A stretch of 63,628 bases of DNA, the filler included, from Nanobdellota archaeon (GTDB lineage: Archaea; Nanobdellota; Nanobdellia; B33-G15): NCBI GenBank assembly GCA_003660925.1. It is 8 parts of 8 records of this genome, joined end to end, with 100 filler letters (N's around TTAATTAATTAA, not from the genome) between each part and the next. Parts side by side here need not be neighbours in the genome. Positions count along the whole stretch, not along the records: positions 16,889 to 25,038 come from QMVD01000029.1; 7 more parts are not named here. The stretch is one strand, 5' to 3'. Below, piece after piece: positions 8,610 through 49,712 of this stretch. A program made the position numbers and the translations under genes. How positions within the stretch are numbered: the first letter of the stretch is position 1; every line of letters starts with the position of its first letter. A model generated the notes under the pieces. It was not told the origin of the DNA. It searched no databases and was given only the letters and a program-made list of their open reading frames with translations.

Positions 8610-10391
8610 CTCTGGGTCCAGCCCAACCTGCCTTAAGTAATACCTCACGAGGGAGATGGCCCTCTTGGCATCGTCCACCTTCACCTTGTCCCTTAGTAGC
8701 AATCTCGCGCTCGCCTCACTCAGCCTTATAATAGCTTCTAACTGCCTCGGTGATATGGGGATGGGTCTTATTCCCTCCTCTTCCATTCCTCTCTTGTTCC
8801 TCAAGTTCACGTAAAACTCTTTGATCTCCTTCATGGCTTGTTGGGTCAACATGGGCTTACAATGCTTCTTAGCATACGCTATGTATTTCCTCATCAACTC
8901 CACATCTATCACTGGCTTCCTCTTTTCAGGGAACATGGTGGTCTCCAACACATAACTAGCTATCTTCTCATCCGTCTCTCTTGCTGGTAAGTCCCTTATG
9001 GTGAATATAAGGTCAAATCTGTTTATCAGGGTGGGGGGGAGGTCTATTTGTTCCGCGATGGTGGAATAAGGGTTGAACCTTCCCAGCTTGGGGTTGGCAG
9101 CAGCCAGGACGGAAGTCTCCGCCCTCAGGGTCGCTTGAATGTTCGCTTTACTTATGCTTATGGTCTGCTGCTCTAATGCTTCATGCATCGCCACCCTGTC
9201 GTCCTTGTTCATCTTGTCTATCTCGTCTATACAACATATCCCTCCACTAGAGAGAACAAGCGCACCTGCCTCCAGAGCCCATCCCCTCAAGAACTCGTCC
9301 TTGACCACAGTTGCGGTCAACCCCGCACCAGTAGCTCCCTTCCCGGAGACATACCTCGCTTTCGGGGCGGTGGCCGCCACGTACTTCAAGATCTGGGACT
9401 TAGCCACTCCAGGGTCTCCTACCAAGAGGATGTGGATGTCCCCCCTCACTACCGTCTTATCAGGCCTCTTCTTCTTGACCCCTGAGAACATCTGGTAAAC
9501 GATCGCTTCCTTTATCTTTTCATATCCCCAAATGGTGGGGGCAATGGAGTCCACAAACATCCTTATGAGCTTCCTCGGGTTCTTCTTCCCTATCTCAGCC
9601 AATTCCCTTATCTTCTTCACGTCCTCCTCATCTATCTCCAGTTCCTCGTACTCTTTTTCCAAGAACTCCACATTATTGGCTTCTACTATAAGGTCGAAGT
9701 GAGTGGACTTACTTCCCCCCCTTAAGTATATGGGGACTTCCTTCACGATGCCTACGACCCTCACCTTAGATCCAGGGGCTGTCTTTCTCACGATGGTGGG
9801 GTCCACCAAGTCCCCTTGAAGGAAGACGGAGATGCGCTTTGGCTGTTCTCCTCCCTCCAACAGTTCAGGGATCTCTTCTAACACTATCCTTTGGGTGTCC
9901 ACCATTCGCTTGTCCGCCACGTCAAACCTTCCAGTCCTCCCGCAGTTGGGACACCTGCTGGGCTTTTTTATTAACTTCCCAGTTTGCCTCACCTCAATCA
10001 TGTACCCGCAACTCGGACACTGATACACTATGATGGCTGCTACGGGCCTCACATCACTGGCCAATCTCACCACACCATCAAGATAAACTAATTTTCCTAT
10101 ATGTTTACTCCTTATGTCCTTGACCATGAGGAAGCGCGTTTCCGGGAGGTTAGTTACCCTAGGAACTATGTCATAATCGGGTTCAATTTCCTTCAGGACT
10201 TTCCTCAAAGCTTCTAGGACGGTTTCAGGATCGTCCAATAATTTGTCCCCGAGCTCTGGGTTGAATCTGTCAAGATCCTGGAAGTCTATGATCAAGGCTT
10301 TTTTTCCCCTTTCCACGACCTTCAAGAGTTCATCATAGTACTCCCTCTCCACGAACCTCTTCAACTCCTCGAACATCTCCTCCTCCATCAT
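8610..10391 (-). CDS. mcm: MCM replicative helicase, 3'-truncated
   Basis: Zn finger CPSC/CPNC, Walker A GDPGVAKS, IDEIDKM, AAANP, and arginine-finger region LINRFDL. Confidence 0.97.
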
Positions 10392-10933
10392 TTTTTCATG
10401 ATCTTCTTCAAGGTTTTAACCAAATCATCTATCGCCCTCTTGATCTCCCTCTTGTTCTTGGCTCCCGTACAGACTATTTTCCCGGTTCCGAACAACAGGA
10501 AAGTGATGTGGGAATCTGGCACCTTGTAGACCAATCCAGGGAATTGTTCTGGCTCGTACTCCGCTGTCTTGAGTTTGAAGGCCAAGTCCACCAAATTAAG
10601 CTTTTCGCCTATGTTTCCGCTAGCCACCACGTTTTGAACTTCTATGTCAGGCTTCCTGGTGAATTTTATGCCTACCTTCCTCAATTCCCTCATCACGAGC
10701 TTGACCGCTCTTTCCACGTCATCCTCGCTCTTCGTGCCCGTGCACACTATTTTCCCGGTGCTGAACACGAGGGCAGTTATCCCTTCTTTTTCCAACTTTA
10801 GGACCAACCCGGGGAATTGTTCCGGAGTATACTCCGTGTTTGGGAGCTTCCTGGAGACTTTTTCCAAGGGCACGTTCACGTGCAGGTCAGCACTCGCCAC
10901 CACGTTTTCTATCTTGTATTCTTTCTTGAACAT
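10388..10933 (-). CDS. tbp: TATA-box binding protein
   Basis: Two repeats of NVVAS...Y.PEQFPGLV...TGKIVCTG. Confidence 0.98.
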   Translation of the reverse strand: MFKKEYKIENVVASADLHVNVPLEKVSRKLPNTEYTPEQFPGLVLKLEKEGITALVFSTGKIVCTGTKSEDDVERAVKLVMRELRKVGIKFTRKPDIEVQNVVASGNIGEKLNLVDLAFKLKTAEYEPEQFPGLVYKVPDSHITFLLFGTGKIVCTGAKNKREIKRAIDDLVKTLKKIMKK

Positions 10934-16888: not shown

Positions 16889-17524
16889 AAGTATCACATA
16901 GTGGACATGTTGAACATAACAGGGGCTCCTTATGAGCCCATGAATGATTTGAAGGCCACGTTGATGTATTATTATCTGGAAGTGGGTCTTGCAGGGGTCA
17001 GTGCTTTCAAGGAGGATATAAGTAGGTTCAAAAAGAATGTTAACTGTATGTGTACCTGGAACCTATTAAACCCTGAGAAAGAATACCTTGTAAGAGCATG
17101 TATTGCTTCAGAGATCTCGGGGCTTTTGTCTTATCTTACAAGAAAGGTTGAAAAAAGGGACGATAAAATCGATGAGTTTGAAAAAAGGGGACTAAATAGT
17201 GAACTTGCATTTATACTCGGGTCTGATTGGTTGTTCAAGGAGACGAAGATCTTGAAGAGGACGAGGATTCCTCAGGATGCTAAGCCGTTAACTGAGAAGT
17301 TGAGCAGGGAGGAACTGAAGAGATTGAATGAGCCCTATTACAGGATGTTGGCGGAGAGGGTGGAGGAGGGGAATCTGGAGGATTTGTTGGAGGATTGGCA
17401 CCTAGTTCCAGAGAACTTGGTGGCAAGGGCTCTGACAAGGGGGTACAGGAGGGAACTTCAGAAGGACATTGAGGAACATCTAGCTAGGGCAGGTTACTTG
17501 CCGGTTGCTAGGAAGGTTGCGTGA
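16889..17524 (+). CDS. Hypothetical protein, 5'-truncated; probable distant paralog of 22504-23127
   Basis: Frame open from contig start. Shares three colinear motifs with the 22504 ORF. Confidence 0.65.
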   Translation, partial: KYHIVDMLNITGAPYEPMNDLKATLMYYYLEVGLAGVSAFKEDISRFKKNVNCMCTWNLLNPEKEYLVRACIASEISGLLSYLTRKVEKRDDKIDEFEKRGLNSELAFILGSDWLFKETKILKRTRIPQDAKPLTEKLSREELKRLNEPYYRMLAERVEEGNLEDLLEDWHLVPENLVARALTRGYRRELQKDIEEHLARAGYLPVARKVA

Positions 17525-17576
17525 AAAACTTTATAACCTTCCTTAGTTCTTTCTTCTTTCATAATGAGGGCGTCCA
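17524..17576 (+). repeat. 53-bp exact direct repeat, copy 1
   Basis: aaaaactttataaccttccttagttctttcttctttcataatgagggcgtcca, identical to 23127-23179. Confidence 0.95.
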
Positions 17577-17579
17577 AGT

Positions 17580-17816
17580 TTATCCGAGTTCTATCTTGAT
17601 CCCGCCGATCCTCTTCGCCACGAAGTTGTAGAGTATCGCTGAGAAGAGGTTCGCGATGAACATGATGGGAATCATCATTAGGTAAGCCAATGCGGAGGTC
17701 ATGTCGTAAGTAAGAGCGCTGACTCCAGCTAGGATGACGAAGAAGATCGCTTGCATCATGGTCAGGACCATGGCGAAGGAGACAGTGTCGATCTTTTTCA
17801 ATTCCTTCATGTTCAT
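17580..17816 (-). CDS. Small two-TM membrane protein
   Basis: Two hydrophobic helices; ends YNFVAKRIGGIKIELG (DUF3566-like pattern, from memory). Confidence 0.7.
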   Translation of the reverse strand: MNMKELKKIDTVSFAMVLTMMQAIFFVILAGVSALTYDMTSALAYLMMIPIMFIANLFSAILYNFVAKRIGGIKIELG

Positions 17817-17895
17817 TAAACATGTACGGTTATTATAAAGATTGTTTTCGACTTTTTTCGAAAATTTTATAAAAAATCTTTAAGAAAAATCGAAC

Positions 17896-18498
17896 ATGAA
17901 GATAGAAAGGGTTTACAGGGAGATCTTGTTTGAGGTCTTGGAGAGAGAGGTTAAAAAGCTCACTCAGAGGGGGCTAAGCCAGCGTTGCGAGGTTTCTCTC
18001 AGCACAGTTAACCACGCCATCAAACCCTTAGTGAGGATGAACGCGGTTGAGGTGAGCAAATTCGGCTTGAGGGTGACTCAACCCAAGAAGATCCTCTATT
18101 ACTGGGCGTGCATCAGGAGGTTAGAAGGAGACGTAGTTTACAAGACATTCTTGAGGGAGGATGTGGAAAGGATAGAAACCATGCTACCTCCTGGATCCAT
18201 TTTAACCGCTTATTCGGCCTTCAAGTTGAGGTTCAGGGAAGCCCCTTCAGAGTACGGGGAGGTGGTAGTTTATGGAAGAAGGGAGGATTTTCTCGAGAGG
18301 TTCGGGAAAGAGAACTTGAAGTTTGAACCCAACTTGATAGTGCTGAAACTCGATGAGCATCTCTTAAAGTTCAAGGAGATCCCAGTGGCTCAAATATTCG
18401 TTGACCTATGGAACTTGAAGAGCTGGTACGCGAATGACTTCCTAAAGAGACTTGAGGTGAGGATAGATGGAATTTTGGAGCGAATGGGTTATCGATAA
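17896..18498 (+). CDS. wHTH protein, AbiEi-like (type IV TA antitoxin candidate)
   Basis: N-terminal HTH (LTQRGLSQRCEVSLSTVNHAI) and C-terminal PVAQIFVDLW. Overlaps the downstream nucleotidyltransferase gene. Confidence 0.6.
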   Translation: MKIERVYREILFEVLEREVKKLTQRGLSQRCEVSLSTVNHAIKPLVRMNAVEVSKFGLRVTQPKKILYYWACIRRLEGDVVYKTFLREDVERIETMLPPGSILTAYSAFKLRFREAPSEYGEVVVYGRREDFLERFGKENLKFEPNLIVLKLDEHLLKFKEIPVAQIFVDLWNLKSWYANDFLKRLEVRIDGILERMGYR

Positions 18499-19093
18499 GA
18501 GCTTCAGTTTACTTAAAGAATTGAGGAGAAGGATAGACTTCATCCTGATAGGAGGTTGGGCTGTTTACTTTTTGACAGGAGCCCTGAAGTCAAAGGATAT
18601 CGATTTGATAGTTGATTTTGAGAACCTAGCTAGGCTAAGAGACCTCATGAGCTTGAGCAAAACGGACTTCTTGAGAAGATACCAAGCCAGAGTTGAGGGG
18701 GTTGATGTGGACATCTACGTCATTCATTACTCTAAATTCATCATCCCGACGGAAGAAATCGTCGAGAACACGATGAGAGTTAAAGGATTCGTGCTCCCTG
18801 CCCCTGAGATCCTCCTCATCTTGAAACAGGAAGCCGAGAAGAGCAGGAGGGACTCCGTGAAGGGCCAGAAGGATAGAACTGACATCTTGGCCTTGTTAGC
18901 GAGTGGGAAAGTGGATATGGGAAAGTACGAAAAGTTGTTGAAGAGATACGGCATAACCAGTTTCAAGAAGAGGTTGTTGGAGATCATTAGGAATTCGAGG
19001 AAAGAATATGAATACCTCGGAGCGAGGAACCCGAAAGAGGTGAAAAAGCTGAAGAGAAAGTTGTTGGAAATGGTAAGGAAAGGGGGAGGGTGA
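18467..19093 (+). CDS. Pol-beta-like nucleotidyltransferase, AbiEii-like (type IV TA toxin candidate)
   Basis: LIGGWAV...SKDIDL, VDVDIY, LILKQ and KDRTDI motifs. Confidence 0.65.
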   Translation: MEFWSEWVIDKSFSLLKELRRRIDFILIGGWAVYFLTGALKSKDIDLIVDFENLARLRDLMSLSKTDFLRRYQARVEGVDVDIYVIHYSKFIIPTEEIVENTMRVKGFVLPAPEILLILKQEAEKSRRDSVKGQKDRTDILALLASGKVDMGKYEKLLKRYGITSFKKRLLEIIRNSRKEYEYLGARNPKEVKKLKRKLLEMVRKGGG

Positions 19094-19212
19094 GCCACTA
19101 CTAACTCTTCCCTCTTTATATAAGTTTCGGCGATTTTTCCCGGGCTTTATAAAAAAATTAATAAACAAGAGGCAATCAATTATTATCGGAGGTCAAAAAG
19201 CGGTGAAACGAA

Positions 19213-19284
19213 ATGGCCAAGAAGAAGAAAAAGAAAAAGGCTACTAAGAAGAAAGCCACCAAGAAGAAAAAGAAGAGGAAGTGA
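19213..19284 (+). CDS. 23-aa poly-lysine peptide MAKKKKKKKATKKKATKKKKKRK (not in ORF track)
   Basis: GGTGA RBS before the ATG, TATA-like tttataaaa upstream, T-rich tract downstream, and mixed AAA/AAG codons. Confidence 0.65.
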   Translation: MAKKKKKKKATKKKATKKKKKRK

Positions 19285-19349
19285 GGTTTAAGGTCCTTGT
19301 TTTTCTTTTTCTATTTTTGGTCCCGTTTTGAGTCCTGCTCTTAAACGAA

Positions 19350-19739
19350 TCAGATAAGGATGATGATCTCTTCGTAAGGGGGCTCCCCCCTCTTATACTT
19401 TTCATACCTCTTCAAGAACATTTCTTTTTCCTCGTAAGTTAAGACATCAAGGATCTCCTCAGCTGAATATCTTCTCAGGAGCGTCTCGAACAATTTGTGT
19501 GCTTCTTTTGCGTATTCTATGCGTTCTTGTTCTGGAGTGATTGCGCTGACACATAATGAAAACAATTTGTTTAGTAATCTTATCACATACCTCCTTTTCT
19601 TCCTCTGCTTTGGGGTCAATTCTTTCAGAAATTCTGTTTTCGGTTCCCTCTTCTGTCTTCTCAATCGCCTCTTATATTCTGCTTCTGCCCAATGATACAA
19701 GGGCTTCCATTCCTGCTCACTTAAACCCCTTCTTAACAT
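19350..19739 (-). CDS. Charged helical protein, paralog of 19739-20215; candidate immunity protein
   Basis: Aligns with its neighbour: FLKELTPKQRKKRR/FLASLTPEQKRRRR and LLRRYSAEEILDVLT/LLKKYSVEEILEVLT. Confidence 0.75.
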   Translation of the reverse strand: MLRRGLSEQEWKPLYHWAEAEYKRRLRRQKREPKTEFLKELTPKQRKKRRYVIRLLNKLFSLCVSAITPEQERIEYAKEAHKLFETLLRRYSAEEILDVLTYEEKEMFLKRYEKYKRGEPPYEEIIILI

Positions 19740-20215
19740 TAGAACAGAGGAGGGAGGCCGTATGCGATGCCTTCTTCTTCATATCTCTCATACCTTTCCA
19801 TGAACTTCTTCTTCTCGTCTTCCGTTAGCACTTCGAGGATCTCTTCAACGGAATACTTTTTTAAGAGGCTCTCCATCAATTCTCCGGCCCGTCTCTTCGC
19901 TTTCTCGCGTTCTTCTGGTGGTTCGTTAGGGTGAACAAAGATGTAGAAGAGGGGCCTTAGTTTTTTCATTATGTCCCTCCTTCTCCTCTTCTGTTCGGGC
20001 GTTAAGCTTGCCAAGAAACGTTTATCTCTTTCCTCTCTCTCCTTCCTCTCCTTCTTCAATTCCCTCAATATTTCTTCATGCATCCTCTTCTCCTCAGGAT
20101 GTTTTCGCCAATATTCTTCGTCCTCTTTCCTCCATCTTTTCAGAGTTTCTCTAAGGTCTTTCAAGAATTTTTTTCTGAAGTCCTCGAGTTCCTTATTCTT
20201 TTTTTTCTCCTTCAC
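19739..20215 (-). CDS. Charged helical protein; candidate immunity protein
   Basis: Start overlaps the stop of the upstream toxin-like gene; paralog of the next ORF. Confidence 0.75.
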   Translation of the reverse strand: MKEKKKNKELEDFRKKFLKDLRETLKRWRKEDEEYWRKHPEEKRMHEEILRELKKERKEREERDKRFLASLTPEQKRRRRDIMKKLRPLFYIFVHPNEPPEEREKAKRRAGELMESLLKKYSVEEILEVLTEDEKKKFMERYERYEEEGIAYGLPPLF

Positions 20216-22380
20216 AAAACACCACCCATAACATCTTTGTAAACCTTTTTGAGTTTATCAATTAGATCTTTTTTCGTCGCGAGCGTCTCCAGCTCCTTTC
20301 TACTTAGCCCCTGGGCGGCCTTCTCCATAACTTTCCCAAAGATCCCCTCTGCCTCCTCGCCCTTGAGTGACAACCAAGCTGAAATTAATGGCAGGTTGTC
20401 GCGCTCGAATAATTTTGAAATCACTTCAGGGTCAATTCCCGCCCTACCTCGTGCAACATCTCCCATGTACTCAATTCCTCCCCAAGATTCTAACCATTCT
20501 AAGTATGCCTTCCTGTACCTCTTGAGAAGTTCCGAATCCGCTTCTTTGAGGAGTCCCAAGGTGAATAGGTCGTGTGCTATTTGATCGACATCTTCTGAAA
20601 GTTCTTTTAGGTCACCTAACTTCCTTGCAAGCTCCGTTCCATACTCAACTGTAAAGGAGTGCAAATACTCGTGATGGATAAGGAAAAATAGACCATCTTC
20701 TTCCATTTGCGCTAGTCTTTCTATATTTAAGTGTATAGTTTTGTCATACCTGTCATAGTAACCGAACACGTCGTAACCTCTTCTCCTCATAGTCCTTTCA
20801 AACACTATCTTGCTCACGTCATTACTCCTGAAACCCATTTTCTTCAGCTTCTCACAAACTTCCTCAGCACTTGAGGCTTCCCTCAACGCTCTCGTGAACA
20901 CGCTTAAGTCGTCAACTTTTGAGGGGAGTTCAACTCTTGCATTCAACTTCACAGCTTCCCTCATGAAATCCTCCCAGCCGTCCAGTCCTTTTACCTTCTT
21001 TATTAAACCACCCAAGTAAGCGAAGAAGTCATCCATCCTCTTCTCCAAGACGTCCGATACGTCGTCGAGTTTCTTTCCAAGCCTTCTCATGAGGTCGTTG
21101 AACTCTTCTCTCTTGAGCACCCTTCTCAGATCTTCTACATATTTGTACCACCACTTGCCTTTGCATCTCTTGAAAAAGTTCTTAGCAAAGGCAAGGTGGG
21201 GATCAAGCGTTTCCGATAAACCAGGGATTTCTGAAACCAAGCCTGCTATAGCTAAACCTCCAACAATGGCATCCTCTCTCCCAAGGACGAATCTGACGCT
21301 GTCCCTTGCATCGGGGTAAGCAGAAATTGCTACGGAGGCGCCACATAAGAACGCACCAACTGGCGTAAGCTCAAGTGTATTCGCGCAAATGGTGCCTGCG
21401 GGCAACATGTCCATACCCATGTCAACCACCATCTCTGCTGTCGTCATATCTTCCCCGGTTACGATGTGCCAAACGTTCACTTGGAGTCCCTCATTGAGAT
21501 CTAACCTGAACTTGTCGAAGTGTCTCATTATCAAGCCCTTTAATGGATGACCATAATATCTCCTACTGAGATAAAAAGCGACGCCTAAGACACCCCCGAA
21601 TGAGATCATGAAGGCGTTCAAGGTCTCCTGGGCAAGACCGTTGAATAGGAGATCAAGGTCAAACCCTACCCCCTCGTGACTCTCCCCAGACCTATAATCA
21701 AACACTCTTTCTCCTCCTTCACTTCTCCTTTGGGTCAACGGCATGAAGTAGGCGTCCCATTCTTCTCCGTCCACTAGGTCCTTAACGTGGACATAACCCC
21801 TCGGGACATTCAACTCCAAAGGTTCCTGATTCCCCTCATAAGTTCTCCCGTTCACCTCGACCTTGTAATAATCGGTTTCCCTGGTCACTAGTTTCCTCTT
21901 GATACAGGAGTAAGGTTCCTTCCTCTCCTCTTTGGAAACACACCTTTCTTCAGAACAATACTTGGGCCTTTCCTTCTGGACGTCCTCACATTTCAGGACC
22001 CACTCACAGCTCTTAACGTAGACACACTTGTAACTGTATTTCAAGGACCAGTGCAAACAAATGAAAAGGAACCACTTATCACACTTGACCCCGTCTATGA
22101 AATAACCGCACTTTGGTTCGTATTTACACTCCCATGACCATCCACAATTCCTCTCGGTGTAGGTCTCCGTCCCACACTCGTAGGTGATGGTCTCATATTT
22201 TGAGCAATGACTTATGGTCTGATAGCAAGTGTCGGTATAACTCACATAGTAACTGCTCGTCTTTTTATGTAAGATGTCGGTTATCTTCAAGTGTACCTCT
22301 TCCCCCAACTCGTAATCTACCCTTAATGCGAGGGAAGTGGATAGGAAAAGGAGGAAAAGAAAGGGAACTAACCTTCGCAT
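20212..22380 (-). CDS. Secreted polymorphic-toxin-like protein: signal peptide, 14-Cys hairpin, hydrophobic segments, C-terminal zincin (HEYLH) domain
   Basis: Signal MRRLVPFLFLLFLSTSLA, TM near aa 255-272, Gly/Ala-rich hydrophobic pre-toxin-like region, and GYYDRYDKTIHLN...LIHHEYLH. Confidence 0.7.
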   Translation of the reverse strand: MRRLVPFLFLLFLSTSLALRVDYELGEEVHLKITDILHKKTSSYYVSYTDTCYQTISHCSKYETITYECGTETYTERNCGWSWECKYEPKCGYFIDGVKCDKWFLFICLHWSLKYSYKCVYVKSCEWVLKCEDVQKERPKYCSEERCVSKEERKEPYSCIKRKLVTRETDYYKVEVNGRTYEGNQEPLELNVPRGYVHVKDLVDGEEWDAYFMPLTQRRSEGGERVFDYRSGESHEGVGFDLDLLFNGLAQETLNAFMISFGGVLGVAFYLSRRYYGHPLKGLIMRHFDKFRLDLNEGLQVNVWHIVTGEDMTTAEMVVDMGMDMLPAGTICANTLELTPVGAFLCGASVAISAYPDARDSVRFVLGREDAIVGGLAIAGLVSEIPGLSETLDPHLAFAKNFFKRCKGKWWYKYVEDLRRVLKREEFNDLMRRLGKKLDDVSDVLEKRMDDFFAYLGGLIKKVKGLDGWEDFMREAVKLNARVELPSKVDDLSVFTRALREASSAEEVCEKLKKMGFRSNDVSKIVFERTMRRRGYDVFGYYDRYDKTIHLNIERLAQMEEDGLFFLIHHEYLHSFTVEYGTELARKLGDLKELSEDVDQIAHDLFTLGLLKEADSELLKRYRKAYLEWLESWGGIEYMGDVARGRAGIDPEVISKLFERDNLPLISAWLSLKGEEAEGIFGKVMEKAAQGLSRKELETLATKKDLIDKLKKVYKDVMGGVL

Positions 22381-22503
22381 TTCCTAATGTTTATGGTCTT
22401 GCCCCGTTAATAAGTTTTTCGATTTTTACCCCTCCCAAATGATAGTAATGTTTTTAAATCCCTGTTTTCAAAAATTAACTAGGAAAGGGGGAGGGATGCA
22501 AAA

Positions 22504-23127
22504 ATGGGTCTATTCGGTAGGAAAGACAAGAAAGTTAAAGAAAGTAAGACTTGGAAGGCGAGGAAAGGGTTAGCGTGGATAATCGGCCACACGTTCTTGG
22601 GGGCTTCTATAGCTTCGGATCACATGGTCACTCTGGTGGATTTGGAGGAGGTATTGAAAGAAACCGGGCTTCCATATGACATACTAGATCCTTTGAAGGC
22701 GCAAGTAGCATATCGGTACATGGTGAAGGGGAAAATTGGTAAGTTTTTACCCAAAGTATATGAAAGATGGACTCTTGATGGCCAAGATGTGTTCGAAGGG
22801 TTAAAGGGAAATCTCGAAAGGCTCATTCAGAAATATGATAAAGGTGAGGTAGACCGAGACGCTGAATATGATGCAAGAAGTTTTGTAAATTATGCGCTTG
22901 CAATGCTCTTAGCTGCTGGCGATAACAGAGCTTACGAGGTATGGCAGAGGCATCACAAGAAGGGAGAAGGTCTAACAACAGCAATACTTCTACACGAGGA
23001 GATAAAAGCTAGTGTGTTAAAGCATTTAGCATACGAAAATGGGGAGGAGAGAAGGCCCATATATTTCAAGGTGAAAAACCTAGAGGAAGTATTGAAGAAG
23101 AGAATGTTAATGCCAATACCGAGGTAA
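22504..23127 (+). CDS. Hypothetical protein (starts MGLFG); probable distant paralog of 16889-17524
   Basis: 207-aa ORF with GGAGG RBS and TTTTTAAA promoter-like element upstream. Confidence 0.75.
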   Translation: MGLFGRKDKKVKESKTWKARKGLAWIIGHTFLGASIASDHMVTLVDLEEVLKETGLPYDILDPLKAQVAYRYMVKGKIGKFLPKVYERWTLDGQDVFEGLKGNLERLIQKYDKGEVDRDAEYDARSFVNYALAMLLAAGDNRAYEVWQRHHKKGEGLTTAILLHEEIKASVLKHLAYENGEERRPIYFKVKNLEEVLKKRMLMPIPR

Positions 23128-23179
23128 AAAACTTTATAACCTTCCTTAGTTCTTTCTTCTTTCATAATGAGGGCGTCCA
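23127..23179 (+). repeat. 53-bp exact direct repeat, copy 2; contains the BRE/TATA-like promoter and first four codons of the 23167 gene
   Basis: Identical to 17524-17576; contains aaaaac-TTTATAA and ATG AGG GCG TCC. Confidence 0.95.
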
Positions 23180-24972
23180 TGTTGGTTAGCATAGGGGTTC
23201 TTTTGTCTTCTGGTGCCTTCTTGTTATTATCGTTGAACTATGCCAATGCTGTAGGATTATTTCAGATAAAGTCTAGTTTACCTGCACAATTCTTCGCGAC
23301 CCAAGTGGAAGCATTGGTGGACGGAATCTATGCAGCTCCAGAAGAGATGACCATAAGATATTCTGGACCGAATACTTGTTACTGGGATGGAAATTTATCC
23401 GAATGGAGGTGTCAGGGAGACATAAGGATAAGGTCTGTTGGGGCTTCTGCCAGTTTTACTCATAATACGGTAGGTCTAGGTTTCCCCATCACAGGTTGTT
23501 TGTATTTTGATTTCTCTCCTGCTTTTTTGGGGTGGGTAGGAAAAAAAATTAAGTCAAGGTTCTTCAAGGTAGGGGAGGCATTTAGAAAGGAAGTTGCTGA
23601 AGAAACTTTAGAGGAAGTTGCTGAGAACACTTTTGAAGAACTGGCGAAGAAGGCTGGGAAAAATTTAGATGATGCGATGGACGAGTTCGCAGAAAGGAGG
23701 GCGAGGGAGTTAGCCGAATTGTATGGAACTTCTGCGGAAGCGGAGAAGGAAAGCGTAAAGAAGTCCTTGAGGAAGTCCATATCTGAAGGAGAAACTACCT
23801 ATGATACCCAGTTATTCCTCGAATACCTAAGTAGCTCTGCCAACAGAGAGATGGCTGAGGGGAGTATAAGAGCTTCATTAAAGAGCCTCGCAAGCGCTAC
23901 GAAAGATCAAGTCAAGAACTTCTTCAAAAAAGGATTCGCCACTGTCGCAGGGCTCTACTCCAAGCTGGGTGCCACTAAGACCATCCTCAAAGGGACGTTG
24001 AAGGGGCTCACCACTTATGCCTCTTGTAGGTCGGAAAACCCTCTGTTAGATATCGTGGACTTGCTGCTGAACGGTCAGATCATACTAGAGTGGGACAACA
24101 AGATAATTCACAACTTCTACGATTTCTACGTTGGGAAGACGGGAGCGGTGAGTTTGAGATACGTTCAGGCGGGGAGGGAGAGGGAGATAAACAAGTTGAT
24201 GGTATTAAATGGGGAGGACATGTGCTTCTTGAGGTATTATCTAGCTTACAACCTCACTGATTATGAATTCACTAACTTCCCAGTCAAGGATGGAGCTATA
24301 GAGTTGAGTAAGGAGAGGAAGTTGTTTGATACTCTATGCGATGAAAACAGCGAGTACTATCCCAAGGATTTATTTGACATCCTGGAGACTATAAAACAAG
24401 TTGAGAGGGATGGGCAGACGAGGACCTTGACTATCTTCGTGAACCCGGGGAAGATGATAAGCAAGGAGGGAACTAAATTATGTGAGAGGAGGGTGAAGAG
24501 GACGGAAGATGGGAGGTTCAACGGCTCCTTCGTGATCTTTTGCTATGAGGTCACGAACTTGGTGGGAGACGATTTCAACCTGACGATTAATTATGACAAC
24601 CCAGAAAGTGAGATAACTGCGTTGAGTTTGCCGGAGAAGTTGATAAAGGAAGAAGGGGGAAATGAGTACTGGTTCGCGGATGCGCCGGAAGTTCAGGGGA
24701 GGTTCAGGGTGGATAGCCCCATCCTCACATATGTAAAAGCCATAGAGTGGCTCTTCGAGAAGCTCAATCTGGAGTATGAGCTAGATACAGACCTCATATG
24801 GCCCGCAAATTATGTAGAAAGGAAGGATGCTTATTTCCAATCTAGATATGATAGATACGAATTGAGGATAAGCAAGACTGGAGGGGGAAACATAAGGTTG
24901 ACCCCTGAGTATAAGGGGATGGTGTTGGGGATGGATTATAATGGGATTTACACGGAGGCACAGCTGAAATGA
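23167..24972 (+). CDS. Large N-terminally anchored protein, pilin-like N-terminus with an internal amphipathic A/E/K-rich segment
   Basis: Short basic MRA followed by a hydrophobic stretch; ATGA-coupled to an MRGQ-type gene; scattered Cys pairs. Confidence 0.7.
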   Translation: MRASMLVSIGVLLSSGAFLLLSLNYANAVGLFQIKSSLPAQFFATQVEALVDGIYAAPEEMTIRYSGPNTCYWDGNLSEWRCQGDIRIRSVGASASFTHNTVGLGFPITGCLYFDFSPAFLGWVGKKIKSRFFKVGEAFRKEVAEETLEEVAENTFEELAKKAGKNLDDAMDEFAERRARELAELYGTSAEAEKESVKKSLRKSISEGETTYDTQLFLEYLSSSANREMAEGSIRASLKSLASATKDQVKNFFKKGFATVAGLYSKLGATKTILKGTLKGLTTYASCRSENPLLDIVDLLLNGQIILEWDNKIIHNFYDFYVGKTGAVSLRYVQAGREREINKLMVLNGEDMCFLRYYLAYNLTDYEFTNFPVKDGAIELSKERKLFDTLCDENSEYYPKDLFDILETIKQVERDGQTRTLTIFVNPGKMISKEGTKLCERRVKRTEDGRFNGSFVIFCYEVTNLVGDDFNLTINYDNPESEITALSLPEKLIKEEGGNEYWFADAPEVQGRFRVDSPILTYVKAIEWLFEKLNLEYELDTDLIWPANYVERKDAYFQSRYDRYELRISKTGGGNIRLTPEYKGMVLGMDYNGIYTEAQLK

Positions 24973-25038
24973 GGGGACAGATGGAGATAACCGCATTGGC
25001 GAACGCGGCCTTGTCAGTCATGATGTTCAGCTTGTTGG
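24969..25038 (+). CDS. Class III signal peptide (pilin-like) protein, only the first 23 codons present
   Basis: MRGQMEITALANAALSVMMFSLL: RG|Q cleavage pattern followed by a hydrophobic helix. Confidence 0.6.
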
Positions 25039-46769: not shown

Positions 46770-47030
46770 ATGGACGAGATCCTGTTCGACTTCGATGACC
46801 CTGAAGCCTTCAGGATATTCACCGAGAAACGGATACAACTACTCAGGGAAATCATGAGGAGGGAGGTGGAATCCATAAGGCAGTTGGCAGAGGAACTCGA
46901 CAGGGATGTGAAGAACGTGTGGGAGGACCTATGCTTGTTAAGGAGGTGTGGGCTCATAGACTTACAGAAGAGAGGGAGGAGGAAAGTGCCAATATTAAAA
47001 AAGCATAGGATAGTAATCATTTTCAGGTGA
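46770..47030 (+). CDS. Small HTH regulator, coupled to cdc48
   Basis: [29 protein letters not shown]. Confidence 0.8.
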
Positions 47031-47035
47031 GGGAC

Positions 47036-49612
47036 ATGAAGGAGAAGGTCATAAGGTTGAAAGTTGCCGAAGCGGTTCAGGACGATGTAGGGAAGGGGAT
47101 AGTTAGGATAGATACGAATTCCATGAAGGAGATAGGGGTGAGGCCCGGAGATGTGGTGAGCATAAAAGGGGAAAAGGAGACGGTCGCCATAGCTGACAGG
47201 GCGTATCCTGCGGATATAGGTCTGGGACTCATAAGGATGGATGGGCTGACCAGGTGGAACGCGAAGACGAGCGTTGGAGATTTAGTCGAGGTGAGGAAGG
47301 CTGAAGTGAAACCTGCTAAATACGTGGAGCTCGCCCCGGCCCGAAAAGGAGTCTACATCCAGATATCCCCGGAGATCGTGAAGAGTAACCTGCTCGGAAG
47401 GGCTGTGGTGAAAGGGGACGTCATCTCCCTAGGGGGGACCAGGAGGAGGAGGGCGACCTTGAGCACTTCCCCCTTCTTTTCCGACATATTCAGGCTCATA
47501 GAGGAGGACTTCGTCCCATTCGGGTTTTCCGAGATGAAGTTCATGGTGGTTTCCACTAACCCTAAGAAACCAGTTATCATCACTGAAGACACAGAAATTC
47601 GCGTGAGAAGCGAGGCTGTTGAGTTAAAGGAGGAGAAGATCCCGGAGGTCACCTACGAGGACATAGGCGGGTTGGACGATGCCATCAAGAAGATAAGGGA
47701 GATGGTGGAACTCCCCATGAAACACCCGGAGCTCTTCGATAGGTTGGGGATAGACCCCCCGAAAGGTGTGTTGCTCTATGGTCCCCCTGGGACTGGTAAG
47801 ACTTTACTGGCAAAAGCAGTGGCTAACGAGACCGATGCTCACTTCATATCCATAAACGGTCCTGAGATCATGTGCGTGGGGGGAGACACACCTCTCCTCT
47901 TGAACCCTAAGGGATACGTGTCTGCTGAACGAGTATTTGAGATGGCAAAGGAGAGGGGGAGGCTTCTGTTGAGGAATCCGGAGACCGTAGAGGTGGATGG
48001 GTTGTGGACGTATTCCTTGAACGAGAGAGGGGAACTCGTCCCTTCCAAGATAACGCACGTGACTAAGATAAAAGCCTTAGGATTTAGGATGAGATTTTCC
48101 GATGGTCAGGAGTTGATAGTGTCGGAGAATCAACCCTTCCTCACCATGAACGAGAGAGGAGAACTCGTGTGGAAGAGGACATCTGAACTGAGGATCGGAG
48201 AGTACGTGGCCAAGGCAGGGAAGCTGAGAGGAGATTTTAAGTCACAGGAACTCCCTGAGCCAAAACTCACTAAGAGCATTAAGCCCATCTCCTTCCCGAG
48301 GACGACCTCAGAACCATTAGCAGAGTTGTTGGGGCTAATGCTCTCAGAGGGGCACATCTCGAAGAGAATGGACGCCGTGGAATTCGCCAACGAAAACGTG
48401 AGGCTGAAGGAGAGGTTCAAGGAACTCGTGAAAAAGTTATTTTCCATCCCAGAGGAGAGGATCAAGGACAGAGGTAGTAAAGTAGCCATTTACTCCAAAC
48501 AACTGGCAGAATTCTTGAACCAATCTTGTGGACTGCCTGTCGGGAGGAAGAGAGATCCAGAAATTCCTAACTTCCTCTTCAAGTGCCCTGAGGGAGAGGT
48601 AGCAGCGTTCGTTAGGGGATATTTTGAGGGCGATGGCACTGTTAGCAGGGGGACTGGAGGATATCCCACCATAAGGATCTACAGCTCCTCGAGGAAATTG
48701 TTATCCCAACTCCAAGCCCTATTACAACTGAGGTTGGGTATACCCTCGAAGGTCGAGGAGTGGAGGACGAAGTACGCTGACATGCATGCCCTCACCATTC
48801 AAGGGTTTGATGGGAGGAAGAGGTTTTTGGAATTAGTGGGAGCCATCACGGGAGAGAAAAGGAGAGCTTTGATGTCCTTAGAAAAGACGAGATTGAAGAG
48901 GAGTTCTCGACTCCTACCAAATATCAGGTCCCTCTTGAGAGGGTTGAAAAAAGAAAAGGGCGTGAGATATGAGGATGTGAAGAGCTATCAAGGATACTTC
49001 TACGGTGATAAGAGATTGACCAAGAATACCCTGGAGAGAATAAACAAATTGTTGAGGAACGAGAAGTTGGAAAAGATACTTAAACTGCAGGTGGACTGGG
49101 TCAGAATCGTTTCAAAAGAAGAGGTAGGCGAATGCGCCCTTTACGACTTCTCCGTTGATGAGTACGGGAACTTCGTTGGGGGTCCTTTACTCATCCTTCA
49201 CAATTCCAAGTGGGTAGGCGAGGCTGAGAAGAGGTTGAGACAGGTCTTCGAGGAGGCTGAGAAGAACGCTCCAAGTATTATATTCATAGATGAAATAGAC
49301 GCTATAGCCCCGAAGAGGGAAGAGGTGGTAGGCGAGGTGGAGAGGAGGGTAGTCGCTCAACTTCTGGCTTTGATGGATGGCTTGAAGTCCAGAGGCAAGG
49401 TGGTGGTCATCGCCGCCACCAATAGGCCCAACGCCTTAGACCCAGCTCTCAGGAGGCCCGGGAGGTTCGACAGGGAGATTGAGATAGGAGTCCCTGATAG
49501 GAAGGGGAGGTTGGAGATCCTCAAGATACATACCAGGAACATGCCCCTGGCAAATGATGTGAACCTTGAAAAGCTGGCAGACATCACCCACGGGTTCGTG
49601 GGAGCTGATCTC
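47036..49612 (+). CDS. cdc48: Cdc48/VAT AAA+ ATPase with an intein, 3'-truncated
   Basis: N-domain, [22 protein letters not shown] and [12 protein letters not shown]. Confidence 0.96.
47873..49204 (+). mobile_element. 444-aa intein with LAGLIDADG homing endonuclease
   Basis: [11 protein letters not shown]...YDFSV...[19 protein letters not shown] and [10 protein letters not shown]. Confidence 0.93.
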
Positions 49613-49712
49613 NNNNNNNNNNNNNNNNNNNNNNNNNNNNNNNNNNNNNNNNNNNNTTAATTAATTAANNNNNNNNNNNNNNNNNNNNNNNNNNNNNNNN
49701 NNNNNNNNNNNN

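Follow-up and report, generated by a model that had tools for sequence, protein, structure and literature searches.

What does a Nanoarchaeota-type (DPANN) archaeon do with a protein that carries a symmetric ladder of 14 cysteines near one end and a strain-variable peptidase domain at the other? The question is raised by a 63,628-nucleotide stretch of DNA (hereafter the window) joined from parts of the Nanobdellota archaeon assembly GCA_003660925.1 (672 kb, 88.5% complete), in which a single-copy open reading frame of 722 amino acids, the carrier gene, occupies positions 20212–22380 on the minus strand. A contig-joint artefact was rejected because the gene sits inside contig C29 (window 16889–25038), and a shadow reading frame was rejected on evidence of purifying selection in the ladder codons. 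Within the ladder (residues 52–159), synonymous and non-synonymous codon changes number 16:8 against one strain and 9:5 against another; this excess, together with the lack of any variable cysteine among seven alleles, indicates a real gene. We find it likely that this is a polymorphic toxin–immunity locus, and its variable C-terminal HExxH domain with putatively cognate downstream genes is better supported than the fusion-loop hairpin put forward in the original prediction.

The C-terminal domain (about residues 526–722; 20212–20805, minus strand) is a predicted zincin-like peptidase as judged by its motifs. H570-E-Y-L-H574, which supplies the H570-E571-x-x-H574 signature, and A-H603-D604-L are invariant in all five aligned domains, which share 23–48% identity, and the same motifs are present in a further allele, P0006. 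The closest family signals are weak SprT-like matches (E-values 0.004–0.014). Neither the carrier and its alleles nor the small proteins encoded beside it matched the Pfam hidden Markov models for Tox-MPTase, PT-TG, or immunity families above cut-off, and a search of the carrier’s own genome for PF14449 was negative at E ≤ 1.

Comparison of alleles revealed four distinct tips on this carrier (window, P0005/L004, P0006, and L015), with swapped C-terminal domains only 33–52% identical behind an N-terminal part that is >90% identical. The P0005/L004 protein is about 95% identical to that of the window up to residue 520 (37–40 of 40 residues per block) and then falls to 8–15 of 40; P0006 is near-identical to about residue 240, 20–50% identical in the middle, and returns to 32 of 40 at residues 681–720; the L015 tip, the fourth variant, is 48% identical. 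The junction is also visible at the DNA level: homology to L004 ends after gene base 1575 and resumes at window position 19319, and among four sequencing runs compared, one contig from run X3 leaves the window sequence at 20820 and rejoins it at 19319. The block replaced in other strains (19320–20805, minus strand) therefore comprises the peptidase domain plus both downstream genes.

The first of these downstream genes overlaps the carrier stop codon and encodes a small helical protein of 158 amino acids (19739–20215, minus strand), the probable cognate immunity protein. The second encodes a 129-amino-acid paralogue (19350–19739, minus strand; 41% identity over 100 amino acids), a probable orphan immunity gene. 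In all three full alleles for which DNA was available (window, L004, and L015), a different member of the same small-gene family overlaps the carrier stop codon, and L004 and L015 have one such gene each. Tip and partner identities co-vary over six pairs (48/48, 33/34, 25/27, 34/29, 24/18, and 24/26%), a comparison that is descriptive only because the pairs come from four related loci.

Related domains were also found on other carriers and on their own. P0007 is a 920-amino-acid protein with a signal peptide, a ladder of 28 cysteines, the aromatic tip KTGWFGIPYPWW, a beta domain, a membrane helix, hydrophobic helices, and an end bearing HEIGH; it has its own overlapping small gene and lies just upstream of a 187-amino-acid orphan domain at locus L008. 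There, positions 9006–10924 hold the P0007 partner gene, then an orphan peptidase cassette that is truncated and has a partner of its own. At locus L016, a 2029-amino-acid cysteine-rich carrier ends in the same peptidase (27% identity) after a nuclease-like stretch (weak YraN match, E 0.016) and is trailed by three small genes, including a paralogous pair. The layout at L016 (2544–8633), with an N-terminal aromatic stretch KKPYWWAWWY, a membrane helix, the nuclease-like stretch, and the zincin tip, is a tandem two-toxin architecture with no Pfam match. The L008 locus belongs to G089, a genome of another family in the same class, in which the peptidase profile picked up that 187-amino-acid stand-alone frame with E 1.2e-17 and the partner profile the gene next to it with E 6.4e-4.

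Polymorphic toxins, as defined in the accessible portions of PMC3482391, include HExxH tips (Tox-MPTase1–5) and are scarce in archaea. By the same portions, the present locus is like them in its constant N-terminal trafficking and presentation part, recombined C-terminal domain, HExxH peptidase tip, adjacent partner gene that is swapped along, extra partner genes, and orphan cassettes. We favor the polymorphic-toxin reading because the tip swaps, co-replaced partner, extra paralogues, and orphan cassettes match the hallmarks given there. The locus is unlike the systems described in those portions in its Nanoarchaeota-type host, in a cysteine ladder within an FN3/Ig-like base that replaces RHS, haemagglutinin, or LXG, in a membrane helix ahead of the toxin, in a tip and partner outside the listed Pfam families, and in swaps within one peptidase family. 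Archaeal Ig-domain polymorphic toxins and Thermococcales VARTIG, so far as the available text of PMC8416519 describes them, share with it a secreted Ig protein, a recombining C-terminal region, inter-strain exchange, and dedicated downstream genes; VARTIG, as presented there, varies the Ig domain and has no recognized toxin, whereas here a peptidase behind a membrane helix varies and the junction is placeable on DNA. The carrier protein is not described in the accessible parts of PMC8416519, PMC13483458, or 10.64898/2026.06.04.730037, nor is such a locus described in the available portion of PMC6393860. The locus is most likely a polymorphic toxin–immunity system whose stalk, peptidase tip, and immunity family are undescribed in the literature searched.

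Because the gene arrangement follows the polymorphic-toxin pattern, we read the ladder as a presentation stalk. Sequence, hydropathy, and allele comparison give the carrier a probable Sec-type signal peptide (residues 1–19; 22324–22380, minus strand, as are all carrier features; Kyte–Doolittle mean 1.58), an FN3/Ig-like base with the inserted ladder, a probable membrane helix (residues 253–271; 21568–21624; mean 1.62) followed by SRRYY in keeping with the positive-inside rule, a hydrophobic helical region (residues 300–390 with segments 336–354 and 364–382; 21211–21483), a helical linker, and the variable HExxH domain. The helices at 300–390 are, on hydropathy, what we take to be pre-toxin-like, distinct from Pfam PT-TG. 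The zincin domain contains no cysteine, and in P0006, P0007, and the L016 carrier every cysteine precedes the first membrane helix, as do 11 of the 13 N-glycosylation sequons of the L016 carrier. Cysteines and sequons ahead of the membrane helix thus indicate an N-out, C-in topology.

The ladder itself (residues 52–159; 21904–22227), probably an out-and-back disulfide-stapled beta-hairpin, was borne out at the level of sequence. Its 14 cysteines lie at residues 52, 59, 69, 79, 85, 91, 100, 108, 119, 125, 131, 142, 147, and 159, with codon 52 starting at 22227 and codon 159 ending at 21904. Nested pair sums recomputed from the outermost to the innermost are 211, 206, 211, 210, 210, 210, and 208, in agreement with the original prediction, as are the symmetry axis on CDKWFLFIC and the strand composition (residues 41–170 contain K15 E15 Y14 C14 S12 T11 V8). 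The seven sums have a standard deviation of 1.68 (p = 0.0006 against random cysteine positions), and the cysteine spacing is more even than random. Across seven alleles (window, P0003, P0005, P0006, P0009, P0011, and P0012) the 14 cysteines never change and no indel occurs; variation is confined to 20 of the 108 sites, none of them a cysteine (chance 0.046); these alleles are 87–97% identical and hence not independent tests. The ladder has zero net charge. Its aromatic tip, C100–C108 (22057–22083), reads CDRWFFFIC in three of the seven alleles and is kept in character across alleles rather than diversified, which fits binding of something invariant such as a lipid or glycan. One public allele is recorded as two pieces (P0012, 227 amino acids, and P0008, 467 amino acids) cut just before the membrane helix, a split that may reflect either misassembly or inactivation of that copy.

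The claim of a single nested hairpin stood in part. An out-and-back path is best supported for the core pairs 79–131, 85–125, and 91–119, by register analysis rather than a confident model, while the nesting of all seven pairs did not hold up equally. At a register sum of 210, the outgoing core strand (residues 79–91; 22108–22146; odd face C W W C Y P C) opposes the returning strand (residues 119–131; 21988–22026; odd face C Y K C W L C), such that C79 W81 W83 C85 Y87 P89 C91 Y93 I95 face C131 L129 W127 C125 K123 Y121 C119 Y117 Y115. The three core rungs lie on one common aromatic face that is continuous over 79–95 versus 115–131, the even residues of the core strands are mostly polar or valine, and five of the six variable core sites fall on this even, non-cysteine face. 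Under an ad hoc scoring rule, the non-cysteine residues score 8.0 at register 210 versus 3.5 at 216, placing 210 in the top three of 36 registers. An out-and-back hairpin with the three core rungs is accordingly probable in our view, and nesting of all seven rungs as drawn is tentative, with a chance somewhat below even. We infer that rungs 79–131, 85–125, and 91–119 are the firmest, followed by 100–108, 69–142, and 52–159.

The base of the stalk is suggested by structural comparison. Residues 166–215 (21736–21885), the sole part of the model with moderate confidence (predicted local distance difference test, pLDDT, about 60–75), align over 46–53 residues to the C-terminal two-thirds of many FN3/Ig-like domains (e.g., 23–93 of 93 and 26–93 of 98). 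Residues 20–36 (22273–22323) are probably the first two strands of this sandwich, complementing the partial match with a strand at E10–14 of the low-confidence model, and could supply the missing FN3 strands. Because only the C-terminal part of FN3-like domains was matched, the ladder seems to be inserted in a loop of an FN3/Ig-like domain, in which case its two ends would have to meet. Disulfide formation is plausible, since the genome encodes a thioredoxin-like protein that is anchored in the membrane and bears CxxC, plus a DsbA-like protein (both scoring below family cut-offs), as well as many other cysteine-rich secreted proteins; VKOR was not found in this genome. Among its surface proteins are very large cysteine-rich ones (2233 amino acids, repeated cysteine modules) on contigs C26 (1162–7860, minus strand) and C61.

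P0007 offers a possible second example of the ladder. Nested sums of its 28 cysteines run 273–288, and under gap shuffling the 22 cysteines at residues 55–224 are mirror-spaced (p = 0.013, in a range picked after the shared end motifs DTCY and PYxC had been seen), with p = 0.068 for all 28. Three of 300 cysteine-preserving shuffles reach the score of the alignment between the window ladder and P0007, and no convincing match emerged when the FN3-like base was aligned, with gaps tolerated, to the corresponding part of P0007.

The ladder–zincin system is rare and patchily distributed. Among 1.84 billion representatives, ladder homologues consisted of the ladder itself, one truncated allele, and one low-complexity false match; word-index searches returned close alleles only or, with P0007 as query, P0007 itself; the ESM Atlas gave no usable feature match for either ladder; and a PDB sequence search gave no match to the ladder. 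With no remote ladder homologues, covariation analysis was impossible. Over 401 genomes, the N-terminal part of the carrier matched two (its own and one off-frame match with stops), the C-terminal profile three (its own, G089, and one off-frame), the partner profile three (its own, G089, and G221 at E 9.6e-4 within a 471-amino-acid frame), and the ladder profile five (three model members and two off-frame). The N-terminal part of P0007 matched two of 60 genomes (itself and one off-frame), and a search around the genome of L016 matched three of 301 (itself, the same place in G089, and one weak match with stops). At the level of the order, the locus was found in two of four genomes; a genome of the same genus carries it, and a same-family genome that is 93% complete gave no match to it. 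None of 60 pattern matches in viral contigs was confirmed, and no orphan tip was found in the carrier’s own genome at 88.5% completeness.

On balance we favor a membrane-anchored polymorphic toxin–immunity system in which the disulfide-laddered stalk is the contact module and which would serve as an ectosymbiont weapon. After Sec export the ladder would fold as one antiparallel two-stranded ribbon rising from a loop of the FN3/Ig-like base and pinned by cross-strand disulfides. A beta strand extends about 3.3 Å per residue, so 54 residues per strand would give a ribbon of up to about 18 nm, an upper bound. The Trp/Phe tip would project through the cell’s own S-layer and bind a surface lipid or glycan of a neighboring cell. 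The zinc peptidase, which follows the anchor, would lie on the reducing side of the membrane and be neutralized there by the downstream protein; on contact, the C-terminal part may pass through the hydrophobic helices 300–390 or a nanoarchaeal membrane contact into a non-kin cell with no cognate immunity protein. Most probably the weapon would be aimed at rival strains that compete for the surface of a shared host. In the one measured pair given in the available text of 10.1101/2023.10.27.564410, the nanoarchaeon S-layer is 15–20 nm and the host S-layer 25–35 nm thick, so for an 18-nm stalk, clearing its own layer is more plausible than reaching the host membrane. Insertion of the tip into a target bilayer like a fusion loop is putative and, we think, unlikely; no fusogen family or fold was found in family and PDB sequence searches or in fold searches that used low-confidence models.

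Comparison with known folds gives partial precedents. Theta-defensins, protegrin, and tachyplesin hold 2–3 disulfides in about 18 residues. The carrier is like such cystine-ladder hairpins, and like the stalk of the bovine ultralong antibody complementarity-determining region H3, in its proposed antiparallel two-stranded ribbon with cross-strand disulfides or long ribbon that presents a tip, but would carry up to seven disulfides over 108 residues (14 in P0007) as part of a membrane protein with several domains. In class II fusion proteins and fusexins (HAP2 and Fsx1), aromatic residues end a long disulfide-held beta structure, as is proposed for the carrier; the carrier showed no three-domain class II architecture in the sequence searches or in fold searches with low-confidence models, has no Gly-rich loop, and is otherwise a carrier for a peptidase. 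No nested or palindromic cystine-ladder hairpins were found in the literature searched.

Several observations must be set against the ribbon as proposed and against its use as a weapon. Mirror symmetry beyond even spacing is by itself marginal: when the observed gaps are shuffled (100,000 shuffles), the spread of nested sums reaches only p = 0.056 and the summed gap mismatch p = 0.25, and three exact pairs on some axis are common by chance (p = 0.89). Non-cysteine complementarity at register 210 reaches only p = 0.09, the gaps 91–100 and 108–119 are odd for a regular ladder, the FN3 match (Z 3.7–4.5) is below the level the structural tool calls trustworthy, and ladder homology to P0007 is only suggestive (BLAST E about 0.1, hhalign E 0.1). 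Structure prediction of the monomer did not confirm the hairpin: AlphaFold2 gave a pLDDT of 39 for the segment (residues 19–215, 39.6 alone and 38.7 with six near-identical rows), and Foldseek with the first of these low-confidence models gave no match at E ≤ 0.001. The same locus function could be served by another fold, out-and-back but with local tip disulfides (91–100 and 108–119) forming a knob, or with shifted outer pairs (59–159 and 69–147, with 52 and 142 joined across or between chains), yielding a shorter, knobbed, or oligomeric stalk. Both poor models do show a local hairpin at about 105–110/117–122 with C108 opposite C119, FIDGVK between C91 and C100 resembles a local turn, rung 59–147 (sum 206) is five residues out of register with the same offset in P0007 (61 + 214 = 275 versus 279/280), and register 216 also pairs three cysteines. 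Yet pLDDT is <30 in the modeled 105–122 hairpin, and register 210 has both the better non-cysteine score and the continuous aromatic face, and we regard this other fold as unlikely. It is very improbable that the cysteines bind metal in nested zinc sites. An even cysteine number, nested symmetry, and the one CxxC and several Cx3C of P0007 would suit such sites, but metal-binding knuckles, raised in the original prediction as a possible outcome, are unlikely in a ladder without CxxC, with cysteine gaps of 5–12 residues, that follows a signal peptide; in three carriers the cysteines are confined to the exported side. A DnaJ-type nested zinc finger in particular was rejected, as CxxCxGxG repeats are absent (no CxxC, smallest gap 5).

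As for function, no Pfam, NCBIfam, PHROG, or PADLOC family was above cut-off, all swapped tips seen on the carrier are homologous zincins rather than unrelated toxin folds (in a sample of few alleles), and a toxin behind a membrane anchor would need a further delivery step; toxicity, protection, and expression of the locus are predicted only. An alternative is a transmembrane sensor-protease for signaling or self/non-self recognition on the model of BlaR1–BlaI or IrrE–DdrO: the stalk would sense contact, the zincin in the cytoplasm would cut the small downstream protein or send its own cell into dormancy, and alleles would mark kin groups. Type I topology places the peptidase in the producer’s own cytoplasm, all variants belong to one peptidase family, and enzyme–substrate pairs would co-diverge as well. 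This is nevertheless improbable given the orphan domain and partner cassette behind another carrier, the extra paralogous downstream genes, the recurrence of the domain on an unrelated 2029-amino-acid carrier after a (weakly matched) nuclease-like stretch, small proteins that show no DNA-binding family above cut-off, and a putative sensor that is constant while its output varies. Less probable still is a host-directed adhesin-protease, whose stalk would bind the host while the peptidase digests host S-layer or protein, with variation tracking host range and the small genes acting as chaperones. Nanoarchaea attach to hosts and, in the accessible text of 10.1101/2023.10.27.564410, have been proposed to degrade the host S-layer, and the signal peptide and aromatic tip would fit such a role; the peptidase, however, comes after the membrane helix and lacks cysteines, the host-facing stalk is conserved while the peptidase varies, and the distribution is patchy down to the 93% complete genome of the same family.

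The remaining features concern the setting of the toxin–immunity locus. Upstream of the carrier start codon by about 27 nucleotides, an archaeal BRE/TATA-like box (22407–22420, minus strand) was read from the DNA, a candidate element that we take to fit the consensus; a sigma-70 promoter and terminator scan of the sequence gave chance-level output only. Adjoining the locus at 17896–19093 (plus strand) is a toxin–antitoxin-like pair of winged-helix (HTH_24, E 1e-4) and nucleotidyltransferase-like (DUF6036, E 1.5e-4) genes, absent from a paralogous stretch in contig C73. On its other side, a 601-amino-acid secreted or membrane protein (23167–24972, plus strand) has a strain-variable middle: compared with the 648-amino-acid allele of L004, it matches at 30–40 of 40 residues per block to residue 120, 9–15 of 40 at 121–280, and 33–37 of 40 at 281–480. 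The gene upstream of it varies too (MGLFGRK, 207 amino acids, in the window; MGIFRK, 241 amino acids, in L004 and L015), and the two could form a second variable effector–partner pair; a pilin-like gene lies upstream in L004. A 60-nucleotide direct repeat (97%) occurs at 17521–17580 and 23124–23183 and in contig C73, at the 3' ends of MGLF/MGIF-type genes. These genes do not keep the same position and orientation in the window, C73, L004, and L015, suggesting that they have been shuffled by way of the repeat. Elsewhere in the window (47027–49660, plus strand), a CDC48/VCP-type ATPase frame is split by a long insertion with homing-endonuclease-like motifs, presumably an intein.

Ultra-small host-dependent archaea have few spare genes, and toxin–immunity warfare among them was not found in the literature searched. 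The locus is a compact testable case, as the peptidase is 200 amino acids long, four alleles with their partner genes occur in nature, and the junction is mapped on the DNA; the stalk is a test object for a long cystine-ladder ribbon, for which no matching solved structure was found. More speculatively, and in our estimate doubtful, the locus may represent an undescribed and rare Nanoarchaeota weapon class of single-pass toxins whose reach would be set by ribbon length (7 rungs, up to 14 in a relative), in which the aromatic tip would poke through the S-layer into a neighbor’s membrane and the peptidase would be handed over without an injection machine, allowing strains to keep one another off a host they share or to manipulate it. 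Should the peptidase really start in the cytoplasm of the producer, the way it is delivered would be informative about the exchange between nanoarchaea and the cells in contact with them.

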